Source of the DNA: Candidatus Caldarchaeum sp.
Lineage (GTDB): Archaea > Thermoproteota > Nitrososphaeria_A > Caldarchaeales > Caldarchaeaceae
NCBI GenBank assembly: GCA_038831915.1
Contig: JAWBKB010000026.1
Location: 1-14,875, forward strand
Direction: 5' to 3'
DNA: 14,875 nucleotides
Each line of letters starts with the position of its first letter. The stretch's first letter is position 1. The notes beneath the pieces are model-generated. The model worked only from the letters and a program-made list of their open reading frames with translations. It was not told the DNA's origin and did no database searches. Of this stretch, positions 1-14,875 are shown one piece after another. A program made the translations under genes and the position numbers.

Positions 1-120
1 ACGATAGAGTCTTGGTTCAGCAAGCTCAAGAGAAGAATAAAACAGTTCAACACATGCTTCCCAACATACAGGCCTAAGGTATCAGAGAAGTGGATAAGGT
101 CATGGATGACCTTAAGTTGA
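1..120 (+). CDS. IS6-family transposase, C-terminal 39 codons (5' truncated by window)
   Basis: Open frame from base 1 to TGA at 118-120; contains the E-x6-K/R helix motif (IESWFSKLKRR). Absent from the ORF track because there is no start codon in the window. Confidence 0.75.
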   Translation, partial: TIESWFSKLKRRIKQFNTCFPTYRPKVSEKWIRSWMTLS

Positions 121-127
121 CAGTCCC
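1..127 (+). mobile_element. Right end of an IS6-family insertion sequence (transposase C-terminus plus terminal inverted repeat)
   Basis: Frame +1 reads TIESWFSKLKRRIKQFNTCFPTYRPKVSEKWIRSWMTLS* (stop 118-120), resembling the IExWFxxLKxRxKxFxxxFP C-terminus of archaeal IS6 DDE transposases. The stop lies inside CTTAAGTTGACAGTCCC (111-127); its reverse complement GGGACTGTCAAC matches the IS6 GGNNCTGT end motif. Confidence 0.8.
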
Positions 128-145
128 GTCCGGCCTCCTGAACTA

Positions 146-153
146 TTTATATA
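146..153 (+). promoter_or_regulatory. TATA box of the Lrp/AsnC gene
   Basis: TTTATATA about 30 nt upstream of ATG 183; SD-like GAGGT at 175-179. Confidence 0.65.
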
Positions 154-182
154 CCGGCGTGGAAACAATTAAACGAGGTATA

Positions 183-416
183 ATGCCTTCCGCGTTTGTT
201 CTCATCAACACGGAAATAGGCGCCGAGGAGGAAGTTGTTAACGAGCTGAAGAAAATCTCCTACATCAAGGAAGCCTATGTCGTCTACGGTGTTTATGACA
301 TCGTTGCCAAAGTCGAAGCAGATTCGATGGAAAAGCTGAAAGAAGTTGTTTCATGGAGCATCCGCCGCCTCGAAAAAGTCAGGTCAACCCTCACCATGCT
401 GGTCGTCAGCTCCTAA
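183..416 (+). CDS. Stand-alone Lrp/AsnC ligand-binding (RAM) domain protein, 77 aa
   Basis: MPSAFVLINTEIG...EAYVVYGVYDIVAKVEA...IRRLEKVRSTLTM is the typical archaeal AsnC C-terminal domain with no HTH. Start moved from 90 to ATG 183 because 90-127 lies in the IS and a TATA box/SD precede 183. Confidence 0.9.
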   Translation: MPSAFVLINTEIGAEEEVVNELKKISYIKEAYVVYGVYDIVAKVEADSMEKLKEVVSWSIRRLEKVRSTLTMLVVSS

Positions 417-504
417 AACCAAACTATTCGTTCTACAAGATTACGGTCTACCGTGTAAACTACCGCCGGACGGAAAAACTGTTACGCGATGGTTTTCCCC
501 TCAA

Positions 505-556
505 TCAGCTATTTCAGGCGAGCGATCAAGTGGCGTTACCCGGTTGCGTTCATCAC
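505..556 (-). ncRNA. Possible box C/D sRNA
   Basis: Intergenic; the minus strand reads GTGATGA (perfect C box) ... CTGA (D box) over 52 nt. Internal D'/C' boxes are degenerate. Confidence 0.25.
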
Positions 557-621
557 GCACTATTGGTCTAGACCAAGAGAATGTTTCGACAGGAAATTAT
601 GGTTGGAAAATGAGTTGAAGT

Positions 622-1320
622 TTAGTCCTTTGTGGTTGTTTTGTTTGAGGTGTTGGTTTTTCCGTTGATAGATTGTTTTGTGAATAATGGGTTGTCGATG
701 CTGATGTGTCCGATTTGGATAGCGGGTTCTGGGTTGCCTGTTCTTTCGACGACGGAAACTATGAAGTTTATGGCTTCGTCGAGCTTCATGTCGGGGTTGT
801 ATTCGGACTCGATGATGTCGAGTGCTTTGTCGCTGTTCGCTCCGACGGCGAAAGCGTCTCCGTAGAAAGCTGTGCCGCTTGGGTCGACTTGGTAAAGCTG
901 GACACCAAGTTTGTCGACGCCCGCGATGATGACCGCCACACCCTGAGGTCTGACGGGGTAAAGCGTGTAGCCGTGGAAATAGCCGCTAACCGAGTCTACC
1001 AGCGAACCGATGTCCATCGCCGCGTCATACAGCAGCCTGTGGCGCTGGGTTTCGAGTCGCATGTGGTCGACTAAGCGGTAGAGGTCGCTGATGTAGCCAG
1101 AGCCCGTTATGCCGACGTGGTCATCGATGATGAATACTTTGTCGCTGGGTTTCATGAGTTTACGTGTTGGCTTCACCATGCTTGCTACCACTGCGTATCT
1201 TGGGAATCGGAGGCCGATGCTGATGGAGCCGCGCATAACGGCTTCCAATGCTCTGTCGACGAGCGTCATTCGTCCTTCAGGGCCGTAAAACATCTGAAAA
1301 CGTGAAGGGTCGAAAGCCAT
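622..1320 (-). CDS. psmA: 20S proteasome alpha-type subunit, divergent paralog
   Basis: GPEGR..V..A.EAV.RGS.SIG, KVFIIDDHVGITGSG..SD, RPQGVAVIIAGVD, LYQVDPSG and AVG motifs of the alpha family. Confidence 0.9.
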   Translation of the reverse strand: MAFDPSRFQMFYGPEGRMTLVDRALEAVMRGSISIGLRFPRYAVVASMVKPTRKLMKPSDKVFIIDDHVGITGSGYISDLYRLVDHMRLETQRHRLLYDAAMDIGSLVDSVSGYFHGYTLYPVRPQGVAVIIAGVDKLGVQLYQVDPSGTAFYGDAFAVGANSDKALDIIESEYNPDMKLDEAINFIVSVVERTGNPEPAIQIGHISIDNPLFTKQSINGKTNTSNKTTTKD

Positions 1321-1887
1321 TTACTCAACCCTCCTGACCGGAATTGTCAACACGTCGACGCCGTTGCCCGAGCCAGGGTCCCGCTGCATTGCCGCTTCAA
1401 CCGCTTTAACAGCGATGTTTTTCGCCTGCTCGAGAGTGATGTTGGGTGAATAGAGGCTTTCGAGGACACCGTAGGCTACGGGTGAGCCGCTTCCCGACGA
1501 AACAAATTCTTCAGCCATGATGGAGCCGCTCATGTCGCTGCTGTAAACGTGTGGGCCTTCGTCGTCGACACCTGCCACGATAAGCTCCGCAAAGTATGGA
1601 AGATAATTGCGCATACCGCTGTAGAAAAGGTTGGAGATGAGTTTGCTTGATTCCGCCACGGACATCGGATATCCTCTCCGCAGGGCTATGAGTTTGCGTT
1701 CGGCTCTTACGACGTTGACGAGGTAAACCGCGTCGGAAACAAGGCCCGCGATGGCCACGGCGAGGCTGTCGTCGACCTTCAAAATTTTCTGCGTGGTCTT
1801 GGACGCTATGAAGAAGCCTTTGCTCGCACGTCTATCCGATGCCAGAACCACTCCATCAACCGCTTTCAAACCAACAATTGTTGTCAC
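1321..1887 (-). CDS. psmB: 20S proteasome beta-type subunit (Thr protease), no propeptide
   Basis: TTIVGL...D17...K33, AGLVSDA, SGSGS and RDPGSG catalytic motifs. GTG start directly before Thr1, preceded by GAGG. Confidence 0.93.
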   Translation of the reverse strand: MTTIVGLKAVDGVVLASDRRASKGFFIASKTTQKILKVDDSLAVAIAGLVSDAVYLVNVVRAERKLIALRRGYPMSVAESSKLISNLFYSGMRNYLPYFAELIVAGVDDEGPHVYSSDMSGSIMAEEFVSSGSGSPVAYGVLESLYSPNITLEQAKNIAVKAVEAAMQRDPGSGNGVDVLTIPVRRVE

Positions 1888-1953
1888 GTTTCCTCGACAA
1901 ATACATGGAAAAGGAGGTGTTTAGCGACTGACTTGATGTGCAGTTGGTCACAG

Positions 1954-2550
1954 CTATGCGGCGATTTTGAACGGGCTTGCAACTAATGCTTTAACGGGTG
2001 ATTGGTCGTCGATCAGCGCGAGTTCGTATGCTTTGCGTAGGATGGCTAAAGCGGCTCGAACGGCTTTGCGGTCGTTGACGTTGCTTTCGATGACGAGTCG
2101 GCTGTTTTTGAGCTTGAGGGTTATGGTCATCGAACCGTCGTATGAAATCCAACGCAACACATGGCCGTCTTCTTCGACACTGTATCCATGCCAGCGGAGC
2201 TCGTCAAACCATCTTCCTCGGAGGGCCACTACGCCGGCCAAGACAAGGCCCATGTCTTCGACCTGCGAATCAACTATCACATGTGATTGGCTGGGCTTGG
2301 TTTGTTCTACAAATCGACGGGCTTTTCCGCTCAGCCTGTAGCCTGTCTCGGTGCGGTCGACGAGGCCGTGTTTTTCCAGCCTTTTTAGGATGCGGGAAAG
2401 CTTTTCCTGATGCATGCCGAGGGCCCTACGCATTCCGCCGAAGCTTATTTCACCTTCAGAAGCCGTGGAAAGGGCTTTCAGCACTTCGGCCTCGTCTTCA
2501 CGGATATCTATGGAAAACTCGTCTCGCAACTTTTTCTCAACCGGGTTCAT
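1954..2550 (-). CDS. Winged helix-turn-helix (MarR-like) protein with an uncharacterised C-terminal domain
   Basis: EVLKAL...ISFGGMRRALGMHQEKLSRILKRLEKHGLV...GYRLS is a wHTH; GAGG precedes the ATG. Confidence 0.75.
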   Translation of the reverse strand: MNPVEKKLRDEFSIDIREDEAEVLKALSTASEGEISFGGMRRALGMHQEKLSRILKRLEKHGLVDRTETGYRLSGKARRFVEQTKPSQSHVIVDSQVEDMGLVLAGVVALRGRWFDELRWHGYSVEEDGHVLRWISYDGSMTITLKLKNSRLVIESNVNDRKAVRAALAILRKAYELALIDDQSPVKALVASPFKIAA

Positions 2551-2660
2551 CGCCTCGACATTATTAAGATGTGGTTGCTACAACGGTGTTTACGTCGTTG
2601 GCGGTTTTGCTTGTTGTTGGTCGGGAATGCTTAAATTTTAGGTTCAGCCTAAAACTGTCG

Positions 2661-3224
2661 ATGGTCACGACACAACAAAAACACCAAACCCTCTTGAAAG
2701 CGACAGAGGTTGCAGGCATATTCTTCATCGTGTTAATGGGGTCTCTGCTGCATTTCACCTACGAATTATCTGGAGAAAACGTTGTCGTCGGGTTGATTTC
2801 AGCCGTCAACGAAAGCGTTTGGGAACATCTCAAGCTGCCTTTCTTCCCAGCTCTTTTCCTCGGCGCCGCACAGCACGCGGTGATGCGGAAAACATATCCG
2901 AATTTCTGGCTCGGCAAAGCCGTCGGCACTTTCTCGATGCCGCTTATCATCGTCGTCGGGTTCTACGCATACAAGGCGGTTTTCGGAGGACACAACCTCG
3001 CATATGACATCGGGTTGTTCATAGTATCTGTCATGATCGGCCAACTCGTTAGCTATCGACTCATATCCCAGACAGGAGCCAAGCCCTTCAACATCCTTCC
3101 GCTGGCAGCGCTCATCGTCATGGCGGTCATCTTCATGGTCTTCACCATCGCACCACCCCGGCTTGAAATCTTCCAAGACCCGTTAACAGGTGGATTCGGC
3201 TTAGAAGGCCACAGCCACCTATAA
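2661..3224 (+). CDS. Integral membrane protein (DUF6512-like), about 5 TM helices
   Basis: GSLLHFTYELSG and AVNESVWEHLKL conserved-looking motifs plus hydrophobic helices. ATG 2661 preferred over 2571 because TTAAATTT lies at 2631-2638. Confidence 0.7.
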   Translation: MVTTQQKHQTLLKATEVAGIFFIVLMGSLLHFTYELSGENVVVGLISAVNESVWEHLKLPFFPALFLGAAQHAVMRKTYPNFWLGKAVGTFSMPLIIVVGFYAYKAVFGGHNLAYDIGLFIVSVMIGQLVSYRLISQTGAKPFNILPLAALIVMAVIFMVFTIAPPRLEIFQDPLTGGFGLEGHSHL

Positions 3225-3280
3225 CAAACAACCCATTCCTTTTTTACGCAGCCGTTTTTAACCACCAGCCTCATGTATTG

Positions 3281-4030
3281 ATGACGGTCGGCCGACGTAA
3301 ACTGCTCAAAAACAGCGCATTCATCTCCCTACTCGTCGGGGCCTTCGTGACGGGCCTTGTTTTTCTACCCGGGTTTATAGTTAGGCGAGAACAACAACCA
3401 ACTGTGCGAACCGATTTGAAAACAGTGGTGTTGCCTAAACCCCGTTTGTCGGGGCCGATGTCGGTTGAAGAAGCGATTCAGCGAAGGAGGTCGCGTCGAG
3501 AATATCGTAACGAGCCTTTGAAGTTGGCGGAGGTTTCGCAGTTATTATGGGCTGCTCAAGGAGTAACCGCTCCTCATCTATGGACGGGCCTTCGTTCCGC
3601 TCCTTCCGCGGGAGGCCTCTACCTGCTTGAAACATACGTTGTCGTCAAACGAGGCGGAGTCGAGGGCCTCGGACCCGGCACATACCACTACAACCCTCAT
3701 CGCCACATCCTCACCCAAGTCGCTGAAGGAGATTTTAGCAAAGACTTGATGAACGCATGCGTTGATCAGGAATGGGTTGGAGCCGCGGCATGCAACATCG
3801 TTTTCACAGCGGTCGTCGAAAGAACACGTGTGAGATACGGTGACAGGGCTTTGCAGTATGTTTTTCAAGAATCGGGGCACGCGGCTCAAAACGTGTATCT
3901 TCAGGCTAAAGCTCTTGGTTTTGGATGCGTGGTGATTGGAGCGTTTTACGAAGACGAGGTGAGGCGAATCTTGAACGCTGAGTCGGATGAGCTTCCTGTT
4001 TACGTGATGCCCATTGGCAGGCCCGCTTAA
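3281..4030 (+). CDS. SagB/ThcOx-type FMN-dependent nitroreductase-family protein with N-terminal twin-arginine signal/anchor
   Basis: LPKP..SVEEAIQRRRSRREY, LSQLLWAAQG-like, RSAPSAGGLY, ESGHAAQNVYLQA..LG.G..IGAF motifs. N-terminus is GRRKLLK followed by a hydrophobic helix. Confidence 0.88.
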   Translation: MTVGRRKLLKNSAFISLLVGAFVTGLVFLPGFIVRREQQPTVRTDLKTVVLPKPRLSGPMSVEEAIQRRRSRREYRNEPLKLAEVSQLLWAAQGVTAPHLWTGLRSAPSAGGLYLLETYVVVKRGGVEGLGPGTYHYNPHRHILTQVAEGDFSKDLMNACVDQEWVGAAACNIVFTAVVERTRVRYGDRALQYVFQESGHAAQNVYLQAKALGFGCVVIGAFYEDEVRRILNAESDELPVYVMPIGRPA

Positions 4031-4586
4031 CACCCTACTTCTCTACCGAGGCGTTTTAGTTGTTCTGCTCGGAATAGTTGTTTACTTTCTCGTCTCTGGG
4101 TTCGGGCCCCTGTTGACGAGTCCGCGAATCAGCTTAGATGTTTTGGACTGGAAAGGCGGTGGATGGGCTGGCTACAGGCTTGGCTACGCCGGAACGGTCA
4201 TGCTCGTCATCGCGCAAGCCTATCTATTCAGGCCCCGCATACTCAACAAGCTCATACTACTCAACATGCACTGCTACCTCACCACAGCAGGCGGAACACT
4301 CATTCTACTACATTCAGGGTTTCCCTACTCGTTCACATACTGGAATTTCCATGAAAGAATCTATCCATCGCTCGGGGTGTACGGCTTGGTCGGAATGCAG
4401 GGTCTGGCGGCTTGGATGGTGCTTCTTCTCATCGCCAGCGGCTTCTACGGCAGGTATCTATACGGCAAAACCCGCGCTTTCAAGAAATGGCATCTGTTTC
4501 ATTCGGTTTTTTCCGCTGTTCTCTACGTAGCAGGCGTCATCCACCTCATGCTCGTCGTAACTCTGAAACACGTTTCGGCGGTTTAG
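4014..4586 (+). CDS. Multi-pass membrane protein, putative di-heme cytochrome b / ferric-reductase-like
   Basis: About 5 TM helices; two H-x13-H pairs (MHCYLTTAGGTLILLHSG and FHSVFSAVLYVAGVIH); SGFYGRYLY motif. TTG start overlaps the upstream gene by 17 nt. Confidence 0.7.
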   Translation: MAGPLNTLLLYRGVLVVLLGIVVYFLVSGFGPLLTSPRISLDVLDWKGGGWAGYRLGYAGTVMLVIAQAYLFRPRILNKLILLNMHCYLTTAGGTLILLHSGFPYSFTYWNFHERIYPSLGVYGLVGMQGLAAWMVLLLIASGFYGRYLYGKTRAFKKWHLFHSVFSAVLYVAGVIHLMLVVTLKHVSAV

Positions 4587-5710
4587 ACGGCAGTCAAGAT
4601 ATACGCGGCGACGGGCCCGAGCAAAATTTTTCTCGATGAGGTGACTGAGTAGCCCGCGGCTTCGAGGGCTTTGGACGCTATGGTTGGCTTGTTGACGATT
4701 ACTGTCAGGGATGCGTGTGGACATGCCTGATGGATGCTTTTGAATGCGTTGGTGTAGAATTTTTCCGGCTCCTTCAGCCTAATCCGCAGCCCGAAAGGAG
4801 GGTTGCACACCACTTTGTCAACTTCGGTCGTCAACACTTCGACGAGCCGCATCACATCAGCCACGCCAAACCGCACAGAATCACCTAAACCCGACGACAG
4901 CCTGCTTGACTCCGCCACAGCAATCCACAGAGGCGAAACATCAAACCCTAAAACATTCAAAATCTCGCCAATTTTTTCACGACGAATCAAAGATTCACGG
5001 ATTTTTTCAACAGCTTCACGGCTGAAGAGAACAAGCTTCTCTAATGCTAAGTGTTTGCGGAGGCCCGGCGACACCTCCAAACCGTGCACAGCGGCTTCCA
5101 AGGGAATGGTGCCTGAGCCGCAGAAAGGGTCTATCAGACATTCATCGCTCTTCCATCCAGATAATTTCACCATGGCGTTGGCCACGGTTGGAGAAAGAGC
5201 CGCACGATGATACGCGGTCCGATACCATCTTCTGTGAAGCGATTCACCCGACATGTTAACGCCCATCAACAACTCTTCACCGCGTAGAATCACGTAAATC
5301 TCGACGTCGGGGTTGTTCAAGTCCACACACAACCGCACACCGGTAATCGCCTTAAACGAATCGATAACAGCCTTCCCGACACGTGCGGCGATGTCAAGGC
5401 TTGTGAAATCGTGAACACCGATTCTTTCGGCCTGGACGGCGAAGCTCTGTTTCCGCCCAATTACCGAGGTGTAGTCAACAGATGCAGCGGCTTTTTCGAT
5501 GTCGTCGAGGCCTGTGACTTTTTCACGAAGCAGAAGAAGAAAAACCCTGTTTACTGTCTGGCCTGCGAAATTGACCTTTACGCAGTCCTCCAAACTTCCC
5601 GAGAAAAACACTTTCCCAACATCGGCTTGCACATCATTTAACGAAAGCCGCATAAGCTCCAAAGCAACGACATCCTCTAAACCGGAAAACGTCGTAGCGA
5701 AAAATTTCAT
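4583..5710 (-). CDS. trm14: THUMP-domain SAM-dependent RNA methyltransferase, probably tRNA (guanine(6)-N2)-methyltransferase
   Basis: N-terminal FATTFSGLE, THUMP (SFAV...HDFTSLDIA...VDLNNPD), GESLHRR, DPFCGSGTIPLE and NPPFG motifs. Confidence 0.82.
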   Translation of the reverse strand: MKFFATTFSGLEDVVALELMRLSLNDVQADVGKVFFSGSLEDCVKVNFAGQTVNRVFLLLLREKVTGLDDIEKAAASVDYTSVIGRKQSFAVQAERIGVHDFTSLDIAARVGKAVIDSFKAITGVRLCVDLNNPDVEIYVILRGEELLMGVNMSGESLHRRWYRTAYHRAALSPTVANAMVKLSGWKSDECLIDPFCGSGTIPLEAAVHGLEVSPGLRKHLALEKLVLFSREAVEKIRESLIRREKIGEILNVLGFDVSPLWIAVAESSRLSSGLGDSVRFGVADVMRLVEVLTTEVDKVVCNPPFGLRIRLKEPEKFYTNAFKSIHQACPHASLTVIVNKPTIASKALEAAGYSVTSSRKILLGPVAAYILTAV

Positions 5711-5758
5711 TCAACCAGATGAAGAGAAGAACTGGACGGCTAAAAACCTACTTAATTA

Positions 5759-7336
5759 TTAGATGTAGTTGTACGCTATCGGTGGTGTGAATTCGATGAA
5801 TTCGCGGTTTAAGGCGGTTTGTCGGAGGATTTCAGCGGCCTGTTCATATTTTGTTTCATGGTAGAACGCTCCAGCTTCCTGCCTGAATTTCTGAAGGATT
5901 TTCTGCAGTTCTTCTTCGAAGAGCTGTGGTGTTACTGTTCGTCCGTCGCTGAGCTTGACGCAGTGTCTCACCCACTGCCAGACAAGGGCCCGGGCTATTT
6001 CGAATGTCGCGGCGTCCTCCATGAGGTTGTTGATGGCTACGCATCCGTTTCCACGCAGCCACGACTCGAGATAACGGAGGCCCACCTCCATGTTAGCTCT
6101 CATACCTTCGACAGTTCTCTCGCCTTCAGGAACCTTGAGTAAATCATCCGCGGTTACAACGAGGTTTTCATGCTTGACGTGTAGCTGATTGGGTCCTTTG
6201 ATGTTTTCCACGAAAAGCTGTTTGACAACGGGGACGAGGTCGGGGTGAGCTACCCAAGCCCCGTCGAATCCTTGTGAAATTTCCCGAAGCTTGTCCTCGC
6301 GGACTTTGGCGAATGCTTTCTGCTGTGCTTCAGGGTTTCCACGCAACGGCACTTGTGCAGCCATTCCTCCGATGGCATACGCTCCACGGCGGTGACACGT
6401 CTTGACCAGCAGCAGAGCAGCCGATTTGAGGAAATGTTTATCCATGGTGAGGAGGCTTCTGTCCGGCATGATGTAGCGCGGGTCATGACCCAGCCGTTTG
6501 ATGAAGCTGAAGATATAATCCCATCGCCCAAGGTTTAGGGCTGTGATGTAGTCGCGGAGCTCGTAGATTATTTCGTCCATCTGGAATGCGGCTGTGATTG
6601 TTTCGATGAGTACGCTGCATTTGATTGTGCCATGTGGCAGGTTGAGGGTTTTCTCGGCGTCGGCGAAAACGGTGGCCCACCATCGTGCTTCACGGTAGTG
6701 TTCGAGCTTTGGAATGTAGAAGTAGGGCCCTGTTCCACGTTCCCGCAGCTCAGCCGCGTTGTGAAACAGGTAAAGACCGAAGTCAAACAACGCCGCCGGA
6801 ACCGGTGTTCCGTTGATTCGCATGTTTTTCTCCACGAGATGAAGACCTCGAGGCCTAACAACCAAAGTCGCTGTTTTTTCGTTTAAACGGTATACCTTTC
6901 CGTCAGGTCCCTTGAACTCGATGGTTTTCCGAACAGCGTCCATTAAGTTAATCTGGCCCGCGATGGTTGAATCCCAGACCGGTGAAAAACTATCCTCGAA
7001 ATCAGCCATGTAAACGTTAGCCCCCGAATTCAAAGCGTTAATCATCATTTTCCGGTCAACGGGTCCAGTGATTTCGACGTGTCGCACTTTGAGGTCTGGG
7101 GGAATTTCGGCGACCGTCCAGCCGCCCGCTCTTACGTCAGCTGTTTCTGGTGGAAAGTCGAGTTTGCCGCCTTGATGAAGGATCGCGGCTGTCGCTTCAC
7201 GTTCTTTCAACAGCGTCGAAAGCTGTGGGCCGTGTTTTTTGACGAGGGAGACGATGAAGTCAACTGCTTCCCCTGAAAGAACAGCGTCGATGTTTTGTTT
7301 CGTTTTGGTGTTTACCGACACCGCGGTCATCGTCAT
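5759..7336 (-). CDS. aceB: Malate synthase A
   Basis: VEITGP, MADFEDS, VRPRGLH, YIPKLE, LIET, LNLGRWDYIFS, GFDGAWVAHP and LMEDAAT motifs; 525 aa, MSA-sized. Confidence 0.96.
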   Translation of the reverse strand: MTMTAVSVNTKTKQNIDAVLSGEAVDFIVSLVKKHGPQLSTLLKEREATAAILHQGGKLDFPPETADVRAGGWTVAEIPPDLKVRHVEITGPVDRKMMINALNSGANVYMADFEDSFSPVWDSTIAGQINLMDAVRKTIEFKGPDGKVYRLNEKTATLVVRPRGLHLVEKNMRINGTPVPAALFDFGLYLFHNAAELRERGTGPYFYIPKLEHYREARWWATVFADAEKTLNLPHGTIKCSVLIETITAAFQMDEIIYELRDYITALNLGRWDYIFSFIKRLGHDPRYIMPDRSLLTMDKHFLKSAALLLVKTCHRRGAYAIGGMAAQVPLRGNPEAQQKAFAKVREDKLREISQGFDGAWVAHPDLVPVVKQLFVENIKGPNQLHVKHENLVVTADDLLKVPEGERTVEGMRANMEVGLRYLESWLRGNGCVAINNLMEDAATFEIARALVWQWVRHCVKLSDGRTVTPQLFEEELQKILQKFRQEAGAFYHETKYEQAAEILRQTALNREFIEFTPPIAYNYI

Positions 7337-8616
7337 TTGAACTGCATGTTTTCCGTTGATTCGGCGAGGGCCGTAACTGTTTCACCGCCTTCAACCGTTA
7401 GCAAAACCTCGTCATAGTAGTGAACTCCGACGAACCTCTGATGTTTGAACGCTCGGTAGCCGATTTTCTCCAGCTCCGATTCATGTGCCTGAAATTCGGC
7501 GTAAGCTTTCATGCCTTGTTCAGCCAGCTTCTTCGCGAGCTCATACATCGACGCGTTCAAGGTGTGGAACCCAGCCAACGTGATGAACTGGAATTTGTAA
7601 CCCATCTGCCCGAGTTTTTTGTTGAATTCGTGGAGCTCATCAGCATCGACGACTTTCACCCAGTTGAAGGAAGGCGACATGTTGTAGGCGAGAAGTTTGC
7701 CCGGATATTTGCGGTGAATCGCGTCAGCAAACTGTTTAGCTTCTTCGAGAGAAGGCCTCGATGTTTCGAACCAAAGCAAATCCGCGTAAGGAGCATACGC
7801 GAGGCCGCGTTCAATAGCCATTTCCAACCCGCTTTTCACTTCGAAATATCCTTCAGCCGTTCGCTTACCCGTCATGAATTGTTTGTCGACGGGATCCGCG
7901 TCGCTCGTAACATACTGTGCACCTATCGAGTCTGTTCTCGCTATCAAAACCGCTGGAACTCCGACGATGTCCGAGGCAAGCCTCGCAGCCGTCAAAATGC
8001 TTATGAACCGTTTAGTCGGCACCAATACTTTTCCACCGAGGTGGCCGCATCTTCTTTCACTCGGCGACTGGTCCTCGAAATGAACGCCGGCAGCACCTGC
8101 TTCGATCATTGCTTTCATCAACTCGAAGGCATGAAGCGGGCCGCCGAAGCCTGCTTCGCCGTCGGCGACTATCGGGACCATGTAGTCGATTTTGTTGGGC
8201 CTGTTTTCGAGATGCTGTATCTGGTCAGCTCGTTGAAGTGCTTTGTTGATTTTTGCGACGAGGTCGGATGTGCTGTTGGACGGGTAGAGGCCGAGGTCGG
8301 GGTACATGTGACCACTGTGGTTGTTGTCGGCAGCGACCTGCCAACCGCTGACGTAGATGGCTTTCGCACCCGCCTCCACCAGTTGGATGGCTTGGTTGCC
8401 TGTCAAAGCCCCTGAGGTGAAAACGTAGTCCGAATTGTTCAGCAGTTTCCAGAGCTTTTCAGATGTAAGCCGAGAAACGGTGTAGTCGATTTTCCACGTT
8501 CCACGCAGCTTCAGCACGTCTTCCGCCGAATATCGTCTGACAACCCCGTTCCAGCGAGGGGTTCTCCAAATTTTTTCCAGCTCTTCAGGTGTTTCCGCTT
8601 CGAGTAATGGGTTCAT
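7333..8616 (-). CDS. aceA: Isocitrate lyase (short prokaryotic type)
   Basis: IYVSGWQVAAD, YPD..LYP, PIVADGEAGFGG, HFEDQ, CGHLGGKVLVP, ARTD, YN.SPSFNW and QFITLAGFH motifs. ATGA overlap with aceB. Confidence 0.96.
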   Translation of the reverse strand: MNPLLEAETPEELEKIWRTPRWNGVVRRYSAEDVLKLRGTWKIDYTVSRLTSEKLWKLLNNSDYVFTSGALTGNQAIQLVEAGAKAIYVSGWQVAADNNHSGHMYPDLGLYPSNSTSDLVAKINKALQRADQIQHLENRPNKIDYMVPIVADGEAGFGGPLHAFELMKAMIEAGAAGVHFEDQSPSERRCGHLGGKVLVPTKRFISILTAARLASDIVGVPAVLIARTDSIGAQYVTSDADPVDKQFMTGKRTAEGYFEVKSGLEMAIERGLAYAPYADLLWFETSRPSLEEAKQFADAIHRKYPGKLLAYNMSPSFNWVKVVDADELHEFNKKLGQMGYKFQFITLAGFHTLNASMYELAKKLAEQGMKAYAEFQAHESELEKIGYRAFKHQRFVGVHYYDEVLLTVEGGETVTALAESTENMQFK

Positions 8617-8725
8617 GTCTGGGAATTACTGCATCGTATTCTCGTGCTTTTATACATATCGTTTGTCTCAACGACGCTGTTGACTATACATAACGCATAT
8701 ATTACGCAAATTACGTATCAGCCGT
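8617..8725. promoter_or_regulatory. Divergent promoter region aceA / AbrB-PhoU
   Basis: TATAAAA on the minus strand at 8648-8654, about 32 nt before the aceA ATG. AT-rich CATATATT near 8696-8703 for the plus gene. Several short repeats. Confidence 0.55.
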
Positions 8726-9718
8726 ATGTTTCATCGGACAATACAGAGGACAGCCGGCGGCACATACGTCGTCACCCTGCCCAAAGAATACGTCAAATCA
8801 CTGGGTCTCGACCGTAAACATGTCGTCAAGATAACATTGGAAGACGACCGGATCATCCTTCATCCAACAGGCACAAAGCCCGTCATTCAGAGCAAAACCA
8901 TCCGAACAGCTGATTTCCGCGACCCGAAGCTTCTCGGACTCGCCATCGTCAACTTCTACATCATGGGTCACGACATCGCCGAAGTTGTTTCAGAAGGAAA
9001 AATGACGCCGGCACAGAAAAAAAGCGTACGCGAAGCCGTGGAAAACCTCATCGGAGTCGAAATCGTCGAAGACTACGCCGACCGTGTCGTGTTGCAGTCG
9101 CTCGTCGACCCTTCAAAGTTCGAAATCGATGTTTTGCTCGAAAGGTTTACGCAGTTTTCACGGGCGATTATGCGGGACGCCGCCAAAGCACTGAGCAACG
9201 ATGACAAACTTCTCGCCAGAGACGCCTACGAAAGAGGAGTCGAACTCACCCGTCAATACCGGCTGATGATGCGAATCTGTTTCCAAGCGCTTCGAAGCAG
9301 CACAATTCGCGAAACCATCAAAGTTGGAGATGTTTCGAGCCTCGTCGTCCGCATAATAGCGGTTCGAGAACTCGGCCGCGTCGCGTATTACTGCATGAAA
9401 ATGGCTGAAAGAGTTGAAGAAGCCGAAAAATCAGGTGGAGAAATCTCGATGATAATCGACGAAATGGTTCAGTTGGTTGACAACATGCTTGAGGATGCTT
9501 TGCAGGCGTTGTTGAAGCACGACCTCGGGTTGGCGAGCGAAGTCATCGACAAAATGGAAAACGTGCGAAACCTCTACGCCAAAGCCTACAAACAAATTAT
9601 CAAGAAGCCTGAAAAAGAAGCTTATACTCTGGGGTTGATTATACGTGCTGTCAGGGCCATCGCGGGATACAGCGTAGCTTTAGCCGATGATGCAATTCTT
9701 GAAATTTTCTCAAAGTAA
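8726..9718 (+). CDS. Archaeal AbrB/SpoVT-PhoU family regulator
   Basis: N-terminal RTIQRTAGGTYVVTLPKE (AbrB-like), YIMG, LIGVEIVE, then helical PhoU repeats (ELGRVAYY, AIAGYSVALAD). Confidence 0.88.
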   Translation: MFHRTIQRTAGGTYVVTLPKEYVKSLGLDRKHVVKITLEDDRIILHPTGTKPVIQSKTIRTADFRDPKLLGLAIVNFYIMGHDIAEVVSEGKMTPAQKKSVREAVENLIGVEIVEDYADRVVLQSLVDPSKFEIDVLLERFTQFSRAIMRDAAKALSNDDKLLARDAYERGVELTRQYRLMMRICFQALRSSTIRETIKVGDVSSLVVRIIAVRELGRVAYYCMKMAERVEEAEKSGGEISMIIDEMVQLVDNMLEDALQALLKHDLGLASEVIDKMENVRNLYAKAYKQIIKKPEKEAYTLGLIIRAVRAIAGYSVALADDAILEIFSK

Positions 9719-9738
9719 AACCAAATAAGCAACCGGAT

Positions 9739-10539
9739 GTGTTTAACGTCGTGCCAACAGATATCGACTCCCCAAGGGCAGTTATATGTGGGGACAGAGA
9801 AGTTTATTTTTTCTCTGTTCAGCTCAAAGACGAGCCTGGCTCTCTCGCACAGGTTTTGTCAGTTATTGCCACTTATGGGTTGAACATTGTGAGCATTTAT
9901 TCGAGCGAAACAAGTTCTGAGCAACGTCAATTCATCGAAGTCAACATGATGTTGGATTTCACGGGAAAACCGTTTTCGGTCGAGCAAGTCAAGAAAAGCA
10001 TCGAGCTTCTGAACACGGTCAAAAACGTCCTCTACAGTGGTAAACAGTTTCCAAACATGATCTTCGATGATTTTCATTATCCAGTTAAGCTGATGGGAGA
10101 CCGCATCATCATCTACAGGGAATATTCCTACGCAGCTTTGATTCATGGCATTCGCCGCCAACTTGGAACCGCGGGTGAAGCTCTTCTCTACCACATCGGC
10201 TACAACATCGGCAAAGGCTCGGGACAGAGACTCAAAACTCTTCTGACGGGACACTCTGAATTCATAGACAAAGCCCTGAAATATTGGATGCTGATTCACA
10301 GCGCGGCAAACATATCAGAGGTTCAAATAGACCCAGGAGCTAAGAAAGCGTTAATCAGAGTAGCTGACAACTATGAATGCAGAACCGGCCTCAAAACGGG
10401 TAAGCCATTCAGTAACCTGTTTCGCGGAAATCTTGCGGGGATTTTGGACGAGCTGTTCGGAATAGAGACGCTTGTCGAAACGAAATGCATCGCGGCCGGC
10501 GACCCCTACTGCGAATTCGTCACACCTGAAAACACGTAG
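9739..10539 (+). CDS. ACT-domain + V4R-domain small-molecule-binding protein
   Basis: LKDEPGSLAQVLSVIATYGLNI (ACT); LLYHIGYNIG, YEC, FRG.LAG and VETKCIAAGDPYCEF (V4R). Confidence 0.85.
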   Translation: MFNVVPTDIDSPRAVICGDREVYFFSVQLKDEPGSLAQVLSVIATYGLNIVSIYSSETSSEQRQFIEVNMMLDFTGKPFSVEQVKKSIELLNTVKNVLYSGKQFPNMIFDDFHYPVKLMGDRIIIYREYSYAALIHGIRRQLGTAGEALLYHIGYNIGKGSGQRLKTLLTGHSEFIDKALKYWMLIHSAANISEVQIDPGAKKALIRVADNYECRTGLKTGKPFSNLFRGNLAGILDELFGIETLVETKCIAAGDPYCEFVTPENT

Positions 10540-11794
10540 AAAGAGATAAAGGCATCGATAAATGTCGACGGGCTGAAATAGCGACCTCATACACGCCGGG
10601 AGAAACACCGCGTGGGAGAATTATTGTTTCAGCCGCTTCTTTCGGCAGCGAGATATCACATCTCCGACATCGATATCCCTGGTTTTTGCCGGCTGACTCC
10701 ATTCTCCGATAGCAATTTGGACACTGTGGGGGCCTTTTAATCGTAACGGTGATGAGCTGCTTAACTTCGAGTTTTTCGATGTTTAATGTCAAGCCTTGTG
10801 GCTTCGGCTTTACGGCGCCCATGACCGTTACGACGTCTCCAGGCCTGAGGGCCAAAGCAGCGTTTCGCAGCTTACCAGTGGGAGCGTAGGCAGCACATGT
10901 CACCGACCCCGTATCGTCTCCGACTTCGAAAAACACATGTCCACCCCGCTTCATCTCCGGCACATTCAAAACACGGGCCTCGACGACGGCGTTGATGAAA
11001 GGCCGCAGCTCAGACAACTTCACCTTAACATAGTGCATGTCCGTGGCCTGATTGGTTTTGTAGACCGTTTGCATCGCAACCTCTTCGAAGAACCGCAGCA
11101 TGGAAAGGCCTTTCAAAGCTTTTTCAGCCGACGTAGCTCGGACGCCGGCGAGAACCGGACAAGGTGTATGCGGTGTTACACGGATTTCTTTTTTCTCGGG
11201 GTCGTAGCTGTCGAAGCTAAGGCCAGAAAGATAGAGTTCTTGAACCGAGGCTGGGTCGATGCGTCTCACGGTTCCCCAGTTTTCTCGGACACGGTAGGCG
11301 ATGGCTTCGAACGTGTAGTGTTCGAGTGGAAGCGCGACGGCGGCTAATGCACCGATTACCCCTCGGCCTCCGTTAAACATGTAAACCATCGCTGTATATT
11401 TTTCGGCGAGGTCGAGAGCTTCCTTCAGCGAAACGATGTCAACAACCGCTTTCTCGGCGAACCTTCTCCATTCATCTGGAATTTCCACTCCTTCGTAAAT
11501 TACTATGCCGGGCTGCGTGTTTTCATATCCTTTCTCGTAAAGTGCTTCAACTGTTTCGACGACGGTTTTGACGACTTTGTCCACGTTGTCTTCGGATGTT
11601 TTGATGTGGAGTGATACGGCGGCGTTTCCACGGGTTTTGAACGGGCAGTTCGGGTTGAGGCGGACGAGATGGCTGTAGTCGATTTTTTCGCATCCCATTT
11701 CCAAAAGCTTCCGCTCAAGCACTGCTCCTACGTAGGTGGTGCACATGCCGTTCGGGGAATCCGTGTCGTCGACGCCTATCCTGAGAACCCGCAT
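10520..11794 (-). CDS. tiaS: tRNA(Ile2) 2-agmatinylcytidine synthetase
   Basis: IGVDDTDS..GMCTTY, LVRLNPN.P.KTRGN, GRGVIGALAA, PHTPCPVL.G.R, TNQATD.H, OB fold and C-terminal CPNC/CRRC zinc ribbon. ATG 11794 fits the TATA at 11819-11826; the ORF track start is 11806. Confidence 0.95.
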   Translation of the reverse strand: MRVLRIGVDDTDSPNGMCTTYVGAVLERKLLEMGCEKIDYSHLVRLNPNCPFKTRGNAAVSLHIKTSEDNVDKVVKTVVETVEALYEKGYENTQPGIVIYEGVEIPDEWRRFAEKAVVDIVSLKEALDLAEKYTAMVYMFNGGRGVIGALAAVALPLEHYTFEAIAYRVRENWGTVRRIDPASVQELYLSGLSFDSYDPEKKEIRVTPHTPCPVLAGVRATSAEKALKGLSMLRFFEEVAMQTVYKTNQATDMHYVKVKLSELRPFINAVVEARVLNVPEMKRGGHVFFEVGDDTGSVTCAAYAPTGKLRNAALALRPGDVVTVMGAVKPKPQGLTLNIEKLEVKQLITVTIKRPPQCPNCYRRMESAGKNQGYRCRRCDISLPKEAAETIILPRGVSPGVYEVAISARRHLSMPLSLSTCFQV

Positions 11795-11806
11795 CAAGGA
11801 AAACAC

Positions 11807-11889
11807 CGCGTCATCACCTTATAAAAGGAAAACACGTAGCCAAGGCATGCATTAATATAACGGCGTTAACGCTGGCATGGAGAAGGTGG
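11807..11889. promoter_or_regulatory. Divergent promoters tiaS / moeB-rhodanese
   Basis: TTTTATAA on the minus strand (11819-11826), TTAATATA on the plus strand (11852-11859), and AGGTGG just before TTG 11890. Confidence 0.6.
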
Positions 11890-13041
11890 TTGACACTCTC
11901 AATCAGCGAGCCGAGCCTTTCCCTCGAGGAGATTAGGCGTTACGGTAGGCATCTAATCATCCCAGAGGTCGGTCTCGCAGGCCAGAAAAAGCTGAAAGCC
12001 GCGAGGGTTCTGGTCGTGGGCGCGGGCGGCTTGGGCTCGCCGATTTCGCTTTACCTCGCAGCAGCTGGTGTTGGACACATCGGGATTGTGGATTTCGACG
12101 TCGTCGACGAAAGCAACCTCCAGCGCCAAATAATCTACACCACGAAAGACGTGAAAAAACCTAAGCTCCAAGCCGCGAAAGAAAGACTCACAGCCATGAA
12201 CCCCTACATCGAAGTCGAAACCTATGAAACACGTCTGACCTCCGAAAACGCCCTAGACATCATCAAGAACTATGACATCGTGGTCGACGGCACGGACAAC
12301 TTCCCCACCCGGTATCTCGTCAACGACGCATGCGCTCTTCTCGGCAAACCCAACGTCTACGGTAGCATTTTCCGTTTCGACGGACAGGTTTCGGTTTTCG
12401 ATGCACGTAGGGGCCCGTGCTACCGCTGTCTCTACCCTGAGCCACCTCCTCCAGGGCTTGTGCCAAGCTGTGCAGAAGGCGGTGTTTTGGGTGTTTTGCC
12501 CGGTGTGGTCGGCGCGTTGCAGGCGATGGAAACGATTAAGCTCATCGTTGGAATCGGCGACCCCTTGATAGGCCGTCTGCTTCTGTTCGACGGCCTGCAC
12601 ATGTCTTTCACAGAGCTGAAGGTGAGGAAGGACCCGAACTGCAAGCTCTGCGGACAAAACCCAACCATACGCGAGCTCATCGACTACGAAGCGTTCTGCG
12701 GCGTATCACCGTCCCAAGACACAGGCATGCATATCACACCCGAAGAACTACACGGCAAACTTCAGAAGGGTGAGAAAATCTTCCTCCTCGACGTCCGCGA
12801 ACCTGTTGAATACGAAATCTGCCATCTCGAAAACGCCGTGCTGATTCCGTTGTCAAAGCTTCCTGAAAAAGTCAACCAATTAAGCCTTACCGACGAGATT
12901 GTCGTCTACTGCCACACCGGCGTCCGCAGCAGCATGGCTGTTAAACTTCTCCGCGACCTTGGGTTCCGACGTGTGCGCAACCTCGCCGGCGGCATCGATG
13001 CATGGGCTGAACGCATCGACCCCGAAATGCCTCGTTACTGA
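11890..13041 (+). CDS. moeB: E1-like ThiF/MoeB adenylyltransferase fused to a C-terminal rhodanese (MoeZ/MOCS3/Uba4-like)
   Basis: RYGRH, VVGAGGLG, SNLQRQ, DGTDNF, CYRC/CKLC zinc pairs, PSCAEGG active-site Cys, and rhodanese LLDVRE...YCHTGVRS...LAGGI.AW. Confidence 0.93.
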   Translation: MTLSISEPSLSLEEIRRYGRHLIIPEVGLAGQKKLKAARVLVVGAGGLGSPISLYLAAAGVGHIGIVDFDVVDESNLQRQIIYTTKDVKKPKLQAAKERLTAMNPYIEVETYETRLTSENALDIIKNYDIVVDGTDNFPTRYLVNDACALLGKPNVYGSIFRFDGQVSVFDARRGPCYRCLYPEPPPPGLVPSCAEGGVLGVLPGVVGALQAMETIKLIVGIGDPLIGRLLLFDGLHMSFTELKVRKDPNCKLCGQNPTIRELIDYEAFCGVSPSQDTGMHITPEELHGKLQKGEKIFLLDVREPVEYEICHLENAVLIPLSKLPEKVNQLSLTDEIVVYCHTGVRSSMAVKLLRDLGFRRVRNLAGGIDAWAERIDPEMPRY

Positions 13042-14159
13042 TTTTGCGGTGGCGGCGGAGGCAGTGGAAGGGCCGGAGTCTGCAAATTATTAGGTCTACG
13101 TGTCCGCCGAGCCACTCCATAAACCGCTAAAGCCGTGAAAAGAACTAAAAGGGCAAACGCTTCCGCAAACGCGAGGTTACGGTGTAAAACGTTTTCATCA
13201 TTCAGCATATTGTAACGCATCCGCAAATCCGCTAAACTTCGCTGAGTTTCATCGAGCTGAGACTGCAAATACCCGATTTGTTGTTTCGCGGATTCGTGCC
13301 GTGTTGACAAGTTTTCATAAATGGTTTGTAGCTGGTTGTAGGATGCCTGAAGCATGTTGTATTCTTTGGTCAGGTTCCGGTAGTCGCTGAGAAGCAGCCG
13401 GTAGTTGTCCATCAAAGCAGCGTTTTCACGTCGAAGCGATTCATACAGCGTTTCAAGGGAACGCAGCTCGCCCACGACGCCGACATACCGGTCGTTTAAC
13501 CGCGCGTATTCGTTGGAAAGGTTTTGAAAACTTTGTTCAAGCCTTTCATATTCTCGACGAGAGCTTTCAAGGCTGGATACAAGCCTCGCCGCTTCCCTCG
13601 AAACTTCCTCTACTCGGGCCCTAAGCCGCGTTATTTCGCTCTGAAGCTCCTGAACCGTCCGCTGTAACGTGTTTATCTGGTTTTGAGCTGCTTTGAGGTC
13701 GTTGACGACTTCGTCATAGGTTCTGTTGCGAACCGTTGCGAGATACCACTTATGAGTTAATGGTTTGTAGGACGCGTCTCGGGTGTAGTTGGTGTAGACC
13801 GTGGCTTCGACAAGAGGGTCGCGTCTAACCGGAGTCGGAATGCAGACAGAATATGTCTTTGAAATCATCTGTCCCACGGTAAATGAAGTGATTGTGGAAA
13901 CCAGGGTATCGCTCACCAAAGTCACGCTACCGGCCTCAGAAACATAGACCATCGAGAAACGCAGCTTGTCTACGTTGACGTTTCCGAGAAAAGTAATTTG
14001 GAGACCGACCGTGAAACACGCGCCGATTTTCACCTCGACAGGGTAATGTAATGAAATTTTCAAACGGCCGTCGTCAACTATTGACGAAAAGCCCTGCGAA
14101 AAAACCGGCACCGGTAGCAGAAGCCCGACCAACACAAACACGGCTAAAATTTTTTTCAT
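13035..14159 (-). CDS. Secreted, C-terminally membrane-anchored coiled-coil surface protein
   Basis: Sec signal MKKILAVFVLVGLLLPVPVFS from ATG 14159, beta-rich domain, long heptad coiled coil, TM helix, RRTRR stop-transfer and Pro-rich tail. Confidence 0.8.
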   Translation of the reverse strand: MKKILAVFVLVGLLLPVPVFSQGFSSIVDDGRLKISLHYPVEVKIGACFTVGLQITFLGNVNVDKLRFSMVYVSEAGSVTLVSDTLVSTITSFTVGQMISKTYSVCIPTPVRRDPLVEATVYTNYTRDASYKPLTHKWYLATVRNRTYDEVVNDLKAAQNQINTLQRTVQELQSEITRLRARVEEVSREAARLVSSLESSRREYERLEQSFQNLSNEYARLNDRYVGVVGELRSLETLYESLRRENAALMDNYRLLLSDYRNLTKEYNMLQASYNQLQTIYENLSTRHESAKQQIGYLQSQLDETQRSLADLRMRYNMLNDENVLHRNLAFAEAFALLVLFTALAVYGVARRTRRPNNLQTPALPLPPPPPQNQ

Positions 14160-14279
14160 CCCGAGGAAGTCGTTAAGCGATTTATTTAATCTGTGGCCAG
14201 TCATACGCCTTGGAAATATAAAGGGGAAACTTGTTTGATGGTGGGATAATTTAATTACATCGCTGGCTGTTTCGGAGAT

Positions 14280-14875
14280 ATGGCTAATGTTTTGCTCGAG
14301 GAGATGTTTCGGATTAACTACGCCGCAACGGCTGAAGCCATCATTTCCTTCATCCGCGAAACCGTGAATTCATCTAATGCTTCCGGCGTTGTTCTCGGTT
14401 TGAGCGGCGGCGTTGACTCTTCCGCCGTCGCTGTTCTTTCCGTTAAAGCTCTCGGGCCCGACAGGGTTTTGGGAATCATCATGCCCACGGATTTCACACC
14501 ACGTCAAGACGTAGAACATGCGGAGATGCTGGCCCGCAACCTCGGAATCGAAACCTGCTACATCCCCATAACATCCATCGTCGAAGAATACGCCAGGCAG
14601 CTGAACGTCCCGCTCAGCCACGTCGACGCCAAAATACCATACGCCAACCTAAGGGCCCGAGTCAGAATGTCCATTCTCTATTTCCACGCCAACCTTCTCA
14701 ACCGCTTAGTCGCCGGAACAGGAGACCGGAGCGAAATCCTGCTGGGATACTATACGAAGTACGGCGACGCGGGAGTTGATTTTCTCCCCATCGGCAACAT
14801 CTACAAAACTCAGCTTCGCCATCTCTGCAAACATCTGGGACTGCCAGACGAAATAGCGTTTAAACCCAGCAGCCC
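14280..14875 (+). CDS. nadE: NH3-dependent NAD+ synthetase (3' truncated by window)
   Basis: Manual translation from ATG 14280: MANVLLEE...[12 protein letters not shown]...[10 protein letters not shown]...[16 protein letters not shown]; GGAG SD upstream. Absent from the ORF track because there is no stop in the window. Confidence 0.95.

Follow-up and report, generated by a model that had tools for sequence, protein, structure and literature searches.

Redox enzymes that act outside the cytoplasm depend on a path for electrons across the membrane, and the di-heme membrane cytochromes known to supply one serve molybdoproteins, iron-sulfur proteins or covalently flavinylated proteins. Could such a path also serve a flavoprotein of the nitroreductase fold? 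The question is raised by two overlapping genes in a 14,875-nucleotide (nt) stretch of DNA, hereafter the window, from the archaeon Candidatus Caldarchaeum sp. of the order Caldarchaeales (GenBank assembly GCA_038831915.1, contig JAWBKB010000026.1, positions 1 to 14,875). The first gene encodes a SagB-type protein predicted to bind flavin mononucleotide (FMN), and the second a small membrane protein with two spaced pairs of histidines. An earlier reading of the DNA letters (the sequence-only reading) had proposed that the flavoprotein is exported by twin-arginine translocation (Tat) and exchanges electrons with the quinone pool through two hemes in its membrane partner. Our analysis of the two families, of their gene neighbourhoods and of the source genome suggests that the pair probably forms a two-subunit flavo-cytochrome, in which a Tat-anchored FMN subunit on the outer face is connected by two b hemes to the inner side of the membrane, whichever way the electrons run.

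The SagB-type flavoprotein and its N-terminus

The upstream gene encodes a protein that matches the Pfam Nitroreductase family (PF00881) with an E value of 4.3e-31 and 108.8 bits (cut-off 23.5), and the NCBIfam model TIGR03605, 'SagB family peptide dehydrogenase', with 134.5 bits (cut-off 78.4) over positions 1-173 of the 173-position model. Residues R69/S71/R73 and P108-S109-A110-G111 are invariant in a 45-sequence alignment picked mostly from matches that carry a twin-arginine motif, and fall in the R-x-S-x-R phosphate site and the PSAGG segment, which we take to be the motifs that bind FMN in this fold. PDB entries related to the protein include 3eo7 (E 3.8e-45), 3hj9 (6e-19), 8CQS (2.5e-16) and 3HOI (BF3017; 2e-11). 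Both 3HJ9 and 8CQS align across the LPxP segment of the flavoprotein, and the 3HOI match starts at residue 47, just before it. These entries, the closest solved relatives, are structural-genomics nitroreductases without an assigned function or partner, and we found no paper on the 8CQS protein in the open-access PMC and bioRxiv literature. Proteins of about 510-528 amino acids (aa) with two SagB-like halves, which are about 30% identical to the window flavoprotein and resemble the tandem entry 3EO7, occur in five related genomes (G306:C7, G301:C305, G313:C13, G307:C118 and G322:C187).

The name of the family suggests a role in thiazole or oxazole formation on ribosomally synthesized and post-translationally modified peptides (RiPPs), as an azoline dehydrogenase in the classical SagB sense. 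The SagB/ThcOx/McbC/BmdC dehydrogenases share with the window protein the TIGR03605 family, the FMN motifs and an invariant tyrosine; CyaGox, BmdC and McbC are all among its PDB relatives, and the 'WKY' of CyaGox aligns with 'VRY' here, Y186 being invariant in the 45 sequences. However, the residue before Y186 is arginine in this protein and K, R, H, Y or V across the family, so that the lysine of what we take to be the Lys-Tyr active-site motif of azoline dehydrogenases is not conserved. The window protein is moreover a single domain of 249 aa with a twin-arginine anchor and a predicted place outside the cell. The sequence-only reading had seen no YcaO or precursor peptide nearby, and this absence extends much further: YcaO (PF02624) has no match in the whole of the 95.6%-complete assembly, nothing like a precursor gene was noticed from position 1900 to 4800, and no YcaO, precursor or cyclodehydratase gene appears in the scanned SagB/cytochrome neighbourhoods, which otherwise vary. 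Because no YcaO was found in the genome, we regard peptide dehydrogenation as the weakest of the explanations considered, and as extremely improbable.

The N-terminus points elsewhere. The flavoprotein starts with MTVGRRKLLK, followed by the 23-residue hydrophobic stretch S12-V34 (NSAFISLLVGAFVTGLVFLPGFIV) and then by RREQQ, with no small-x-small cleavage site, so the earlier description of GRRKLLK plus a hydrophobic helix with no obvious cleavage site stands; S12-V34 is probably an uncleaved membrane anchor. Tat signals follow the consensus S/T-R-R-x-F-L-K, which GRRKLLK fits. Conservation of the two arginines had been named beforehand as the observation on which the export proposal would stand or fall: all of the 45 sequences, a set drawn mostly from matches with the motif, have R6 and at least 90% have R5, and twin arginines plus an anchor occur in all 14 cytochrome-linked loci among 30 SagB loci examined. 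The same holds for 10 of 10 pair loci with an N-terminus from a genome-contig scan and for 7 of 7 such loci from metagenomes.

An unselected count gives the wider picture. When the best 120 of 2727 flavoprotein homologues were sorted by type of N-terminus with a script, 62 had twin arginines followed by a hydrophobic segment, 32 had a hydrophobic N-terminus without the two arginines (some look like truncated gene calls), 3 had a lipobox-like signal and 23 had no hydrophobic N-terminus, some of these being truncated. Among these 23, a group of 234-aa homologues, some labelled Nitrososphaerales, looks truly cytoplasmic. Because these 62, 32 and 3 proteins bring the number of nearest relatives with an N-terminal hydrophobic segment to 97 of 120, most of this SagB-like subfamily looks extracytoplasmic, and the premise of the sequence-only reading that SagB-like proteins are typically cytoplasmic fails for it.

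Charge distribution suggests the same orientation. The N-terminal flank of the anchor carries a net charge of +4.7 and the C-terminal flank +1.4, and the N-terminal flank is the more positive one in 42 of 45 homologues; from this the N-terminus is predicted to lie inside and the catalytic domain outside. The source genome encodes the machinery for such export, with TatC (E 2.6e-34) and two TatA proteins (7.2e-12 and 1.9e-6), all above the cut-off, and a crude motif scan returned 29 twin-arginine candidates with a hydrophobic stretch, many of the SRRxFL type. ApbE was not found in this genome, which closes that route to covalent flavin attachment outside the cell, and Tat export of a protein already loaded with FMN would be the simplest path. 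On these grounds we infer that the flavoprotein is exported by Tat.

The membrane protein as a predicted di-heme cytochrome b

Seven histidines occur in the 190-aa membrane protein, four of which form the two H-x13-H pairs noted in the sequence-only reading; the codons of H86/H100 and H163/H177 were checked and bear the pairs out. All four are invariant in the seven close homologues found, and again in an alignment of 21 sequences reaching down to 27% identity, where they make up half of the only 8 invariant columns. Histidine conservation, which the heme proposal needed, therefore extends across the family as sampled. A profile search of 1.84 billion representatives yielded 109 relatives at E ≤ 0.001.

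Family models reach the protein only through these relatives. The Pfam scan gave no match of the membrane protein to PF01292 or PF01794, comparison with PDB chains returned chance rows only (E 0.05 to 0.6) and the ESM Atlas gave unnamed clusters only. Among 37 relatives scanned, several match DUF4405, Ni_hydr_CYTB (below threshold), Ferric_reduct or cytochrome b561, families that we take to belong to one Pfam clan. Two of the 37, P0142 (30.5 bits) and P0143 (26.9 bits), pass the DUF4405 cut-off of 26.7 bits, and the cytochrome profile reaches P0142 at E 5.5e-17; the link of the window protein to DUF4405 is thus transitive only. For DUF4405, whose four histidines lie centrally, binding of heme b is described as demonstrated, and the family is grouped with PepSY-like (PDB 7ABW) and MsrQ-like cytochromes whose partners are extracytosolic flavoproteins (PMC11334425). 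Two distant relatives of the window cytochrome (P0140 and P0151) have weak PepSY-like matches at their N-termini, and a third (P0213) is a 782-aa fusion with 4Fe-4S dicluster domains.

The AlphaFold2 (AF2) model built from the 21-sequence alignment has a mean predicted local distance difference test (pLDDT) score of 87.5, against 67.8 for the model built from 7 sequences, and shows five helices, with the histidine pairs on helices 79-100 and 153-183. In an exhaustive fold comparison the top matches were cytochrome b561 (4o6y; Z 10.8 over 157 residues) and Dcytb (5zlg; Z 9.9 over 167 residues), followed by CybB (5oc0; Z 9.8) and a designed two-heme protein (9.3); FdnI also appears (7.9). Loops B (+3.5) and D (+4.7) are far more positive than loops A (+0.2) and C (+0.9), and by the positive-inside tendency the protein should have its N-terminus inside and its C-terminus outside, which would put H86 and H163 towards the cytoplasm and H100 and H177 towards the outer face. 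The geometry of the four histidines is that predicted for two hemes stacked across the membrane, and we accordingly describe the protein as a candidate heme b protein. It appears to represent a new and undescribed cytochrome b family without a Pfam model.

Two hemes in a membrane protein would also suit a NOX-like enzyme, in which a flavin domain anchored on the cytoplasmic side oxidises NAD(P)H and sends electrons outward. One flavoprotein homologue from Pyrococcus (P0118) is indeed named 'NADH oxidase (noxC)' by its source, and weak Foldseek rows of the cytochrome model include the membrane domains of NOX5 and NOX2 along with FdnI (row 26). Such an arrangement nevertheless runs against the far more positive N-terminal flank of the anchor in 42 of 45 homologues and the conserved, good Tat consensus, and the three lipobox-like homologues and others with signal-peptide-like N-termini all point to an outside domain; we judge it very unlikely. 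A prediction of the whole complex (two flavoprotein chains, one cytochrome chain, two hemes and two FMN) scored 0.20 and 0.11 against a mark of 0.32, and speaks neither for nor against binding.

Conservation, loss and surroundings of the gene pair

Do the two genes belong together? The overlap of 17 nt reported in the sequence-only reading is present, at 4014..4030: the frame of the membrane protein is closed upstream by TGA at 4005-4007, and TTG at 4014 is its first possible start. This overlap implies a single transcript and possibly coupled translation, and overlapping or abutting genes were seen again in homologous loci. The genome-contig scan retrieved 18 loci, 12 of them close relatives (L004-L015), and SagB lies directly upstream of the cytochrome in 11 of these 12. 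L011 carries its SagB gene in three frames, and L014 is truncated where its contig ends; in L015 (also L054; G058:C25) only the last 23 SagB codons are left, directly before a frameshifted cytochrome gene, a copy that could be a decayed cassette or else an assembly error.

The same adjacency holds across the order. The cytochrome profile matched 30 of 76 genomes, 27 of them strongly, and by coordinates SagB stands immediately upstream in 25 of the 27, although these genomes are related and overlap the genome-contig loci, so that the counts are not independent events. The two exceptions are the decayed copy in G058 and a diverged paralogue in G026. A metagenome scan, run with a narrower cytochrome alignment, found SagB upstream in 8 of 9 loci with cytochrome identities down to 35%, the ninth being cut 74 nt upstream. 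Flanking genes differ from one pair locus to another (thiamine pyrophosphate enzyme, peptidase M20, BtpA, aminotransferase, TiaS), and both genes are absent together from close relatives of the same genus such as G010 and G066, which are 97-99% complete. The pair is thus syntenic, as the sequence-only reading required. For Caldarchaeales, it would represent an accessory module of respiration that members of one genus acquire or lose as a whole. Apparent damage was noticed in two further genomes, with SagB split over three frames in G306 and an in-frame TAG in the cytochrome gene of G273, through decay or assembly error.

SagB itself is more widely distributed than the cytochrome. Among 301 genomes of the phylum, 123 have a homologue, and of the 30 loci examined 14 have the cytochrome beside SagB and 16 do not, many of the latter being twin-arginine-anchored. 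The cytochrome profile has no match in the genomes of two genera, g4 (0 of 7) and g9 (0 of 14), whose SagB genes are mostly anchored in the same way. Neighbours of SagB homologues without a cytochrome are housekeeping genes only, such as tRNA methyltransferases and peptidases, and give no functional clue. At two cytochrome-less loci (L044:2142-2348 and L048:1289-1495) the end of SagB is overlapped by a gene for a 68-aa protein with two hydrophobic segments and no Pfam match, which could be a different small membrane partner.

Features of the locus in the window are collected in Table 1. The candidate TATA-like box is proposed from its composition and position, archaeal promoters commonly carrying such an element upstream of the start; it is a possible one.

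Table 1. Coordinates of the flavoprotein-cytochrome locus and its features within the window
Feature	Position	Strand	Remark
DUF6512 membrane protein	2571..3224	+	PF20122, E 2.3e-32; occasional upstream neighbour
TTTTTAA, TATA-like box candidate	3255..3261	+	20-26 nt before ATG 3281
SagB-type nitroreductase-fold FMN protein gene	3281..4030	+	249 aa; predicted outer-face catalytic subunit
Twin-arginine motif G4-R5-R6-K7-L8-L9-K10	3290..3310	+	read from sequence
Hydrophobic h-region S12-V34, then basic R35-R36	3314..3382	+	probably uncleaved membrane anchor
Nitroreductase/SagB catalytic domain	3476..4021	+	residues 66-247; whole 167-position Pfam model covered
Gene overlap, 17 nt	4014..4030	+	stop of flavoprotein gene at 4028-4030
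5-helix membrane protein gene	4014..4586	+	190 aa; predicted di-heme cytochrome b; no Pfam model
H86...H100, helix 3	4269..4313	+	codons 4269-4271, 4311-4313
H163...H177, helix 5	4500..4544	+	codons 4500-4502, 4542-4544

The DUF6512 gene just upstream was considered as a constant third subunit and rejected, because it neighbours the pair in only a minority of loci (2 of 11 other pair-bearing genome-contig loci, L005 and L010, plus L027 from the genome search for SagB); membership of its product in the two-gene unit is doubtful. No paper on DUF6512 was found in the open-access PMC and bioRxiv literature. Beyond it lies a divergent gene for a MarR/ArsR-like protein (1954-2550, minus strand), which is a candidate for regulating the pair, and the order MarR-DUF6512-SagB-cytochrome is found again in L005.

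The closest proteins in the databases bear the name Candidatus Caldarchaeum sp. Other genes of the window include those for the archaeal proteasome and TiaS, and a glyoxylate-shunt pair of malate synthase and isocitrate lyase genes (5759-7336 and 7333-8616, both minus strand, overlapping by 4 nt). A malate synthase gene also adjoins a distant cytochrome relative in the Thermoplasmata locus L017, which is probably coincidence. A fusion of ThiF and rhodanese (11890-13041, plus strand) is of the type of E1-like enzymes that activate sulfur carriers or ubiquitin-like proteins, and beside it a 389-aa protein (13035-14204, minus strand) matches coiled-coil families only, all below their cut-offs.

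Direction of electron flow and comparison with known systems

How might the two proteins work together? The SagB-type protein would fold and bind FMN in the cytoplasm, cross the membrane through Tat, probably as the dimer usual for nitroreductase folds, and stay tethered by its uncleaved twin-arginine signal anchor with the catalytic domain outside. Its five-helix partner would carry two stacked b hemes, an inner one held by H86 and H163 and an outer one held by H100 and H177, so that electrons could pass between FMN, the outer heme, the inner heme and the quinone pool, or possibly a cytoplasmic partner. If an extracytoplasmic substrate were oxidised at FMN and its electrons were carried inward to quinone, the result would be a redox loop. 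We infer the FMN loading, subunit contact, quinone coupling, direction and substrate of this scheme.

The evidence for such a flavo-cytochrome comes from sequence, synteny and models, and several observations weigh against it. At 2.59 the h-region of the flavoprotein is more hydrophobic than those of most other twin-arginine candidates in the genome, as would suit a plain signal anchor, and the protein may be inserted by Sec or a YidC-type route instead of Tat. The membrane protein itself matches no Pfam family (E ≤ 0.01) and no NCBIfam family (E ≤ 0.1), a Foldseek search of the PDB gave no match at E ≤ 0.001 for either AF2 model, and all of the fold Z scores lie below about 13, where helical bundles may share a mere arrangement. 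Chemically, nitroreductase-type FMN usually performs two-electron reactions and hemes one-electron ones, so direct transfer between them needs a usable semiquinone. The search of the 95.6%-complete genome found neither HemB (ALAD) nor HemC (porphobilinogen deaminase), so its heme would need to come from outside, as it probably does; a gene for the heme-copper oxidase COX1 is present, so heme is evidently obtained somehow. Across the order only 16 of 76 genomes have HemB, within the genus 1 of 12, and even 99%-complete single-contig genomes lack it; heme auxotrophy in much of the lineage is possible. No fusion of SagB and cytochrome turned up among the proteins of 376-2000 aa searched, which is weak evidence. 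Finally, none of the 6 loci with distant cytochrome relatives (30-34% identical, in Thermoplasmata and similar archaea) has a SagB gene close by, and the diverged paralogue in G026 is not beside a SagB gene; the cytochrome family is therefore not dedicated to a SagB partner.

This last point bears on whether the two proteins touch electronically at all. They could be co-expressed without direct electron contact, the cytochrome acting as a CybB-like superoxide:quinone oxidoreductase or serving some other partner while the flavoenzyme uses O2 or quinone. The high place of CybB, the superoxide oxidase of E. coli, in the fold comparison (Z 9.8) would agree with this, and so would the occurrence of cytochrome relatives without SagB and of many SagB homologues without the cytochrome. 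Co-regulation, however, would not need all that is seen here: adjacency in 25 of 27 genomes, overlapping frames, joint absence, and joint decay in G058. We consider separate functions unlikely, and return to the flavo-cytochrome.

For the direction of electron flow within it, we slightly favour oxidation outside with electrons moving inward, because no NAD(P)H is available outside the cell and because the many twin-arginine-anchored homologues that lack a cytochrome would, if reductases, be left with no source of electrons. Acting as oxidases or dehydrogenases, these cytochrome-less proteins could use O2 or quinone directly, and the window protein would fit an enzyme of that kind that here gained a respiratory outlet. 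The flavo-cytochrome architecture taken together with this inward flow is a tentative proposal whose chances fall somewhat short of even.

The same architecture could also run the other way, as in MsrPQ, from quinol or a cytoplasmic reductase through the inner and outer hemes to FMN. The outside acceptor might then be, for example, an Fe(III) chelate, a quinone, a humic, nitro or azo compound, or some oxidised molecule of the cell surface. All of the architectural evidence applies to it equally, and most members of the nitroreductase superfamily are reductases. In one Caldarchaeum locus a Peripla_BP_2 gene (L006:3351-4202) overlaps the start of SagB; Pfam names this family only 'Periplasmic binding protein', and iron chelates, heme and cobalamin are presumably among its ligands. 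That neighbour is nevertheless found in just 1 of 6 scanned Caldarchaeales loci, the anchored proteins that lack a cytochrome (16 of 30 loci; no cytochrome match in g4 or g9) would have no outside donor, and by the usual midpoint potentials electrons would move uphill from quinol to an FMN of the nitroreductase type. Outward flow is a strong rival to inward flow, held at a good deal less than even.

MsrPQ (YedYZ of E. coli) was the analogy drawn by the sequence-only reading, and as a comparison of architecture it holds: both systems have adjacent genes and a small multi-helix membrane partner with four histidines, and the pair is predicted to share with MsrPQ a Tat-exported catalytic subunit loaded with its cofactor and the passage of electrons across the membrane through hemes. 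As a claim of membership it does not, since the MsrPQ catalytic subunit is a molybdoenzyme and the one here an FMN protein of the nitroreductase fold that apparently stays anchored, and since MsrQ belongs to the Ferric_reduct family, whereas the window cytochrome has five predicted helices, no PF01794 match and maybe the opposite direction of electron flow. Formate dehydrogenase-N (FdnGHI) and hydrogenase-1 (HyaABC), Tat-exported dehydrogenases whose di-heme cytochrome b belongs to the Ni_hydr_CYTB family, also resemble the pair as proposed, with oxidation outside, stacked b hemes on H-x13-H histidines and quinone reduction at the inner side, but the pair has no iron-sulfur subunit in between, its flavin would be the catalytic cofactor and its cytochrome has no PF01292 match. 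The eukaryotic cytochrome b561 and Dcytb, the best fold matches, place two hemes on either side of the membrane; they have six helices, use ascorbate and share only 10-11% identity with the window cytochrome, with no significant sequence match.

The flavinylation-associated cytochromes (DUF4405, PepSY-like/FoxB and MsrQ-like) resemble the pair in their kind of partner, being small cytochromes with four central histidines that serve an extracytosolic flavoprotein (PMC11334425). Those flavoproteins are flavinylated by ApbE, whereas here the flavin would presumably be non-covalent and exported in the folded protein by Tat, in an archaeal host; DUF4405 is described there with six helices and the window cytochrome is predicted to have five, and the word 'nitroreductase' occurs 0 times in the main text of that paper. 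A search of the open-access PMC and bioRxiv literature, without supplements, found no paper on a Tat-exported or periplasmic SagB-like nitroreductase or on its pairing with a cytochrome b. The design principle is thus known from MsrPQ, formate dehydrogenase-N, hydrogenase-1 and the flavinylation-linked cytochromes, and the combination of SagB with a cytochrome appears to be undescribed.

That the pair is a new class of archaeal respiratory enzyme, in which a Tat-exported, membrane-anchored FMN dehydrogenase takes electrons from an extracellular or cell-surface substrate and passes them through a five-helix di-heme cytochrome b to quinone, is possible, if doubtful at present. If true, it would be a flavin-only counterpart of formate dehydrogenase-N or hydrogenase-1 and the first nitroreductase-superfamily enzyme shown to take part in electron transport outside the cytoplasm. 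A function would then be at hand for a large, uncharacterised group of SagB-like proteins with signals, among them 3HJ9, 3HOI and 8CQS, and with it a first functional handle on a very large set of signal-bearing proteins annotated as 'SagB/ThcOx family dehydrogenase' in archaea and bacteria that are unrelated to peptide antibiotics, and it would define a cytochrome b family outside Pfam coverage. To the molybdo-, iron-sulfur and covalently flavinylated proteins already known as partners of di-heme cytochromes, the pairing would add a nitroreductase-fold enzyme whose non-covalent FMN is delivered by Tat.

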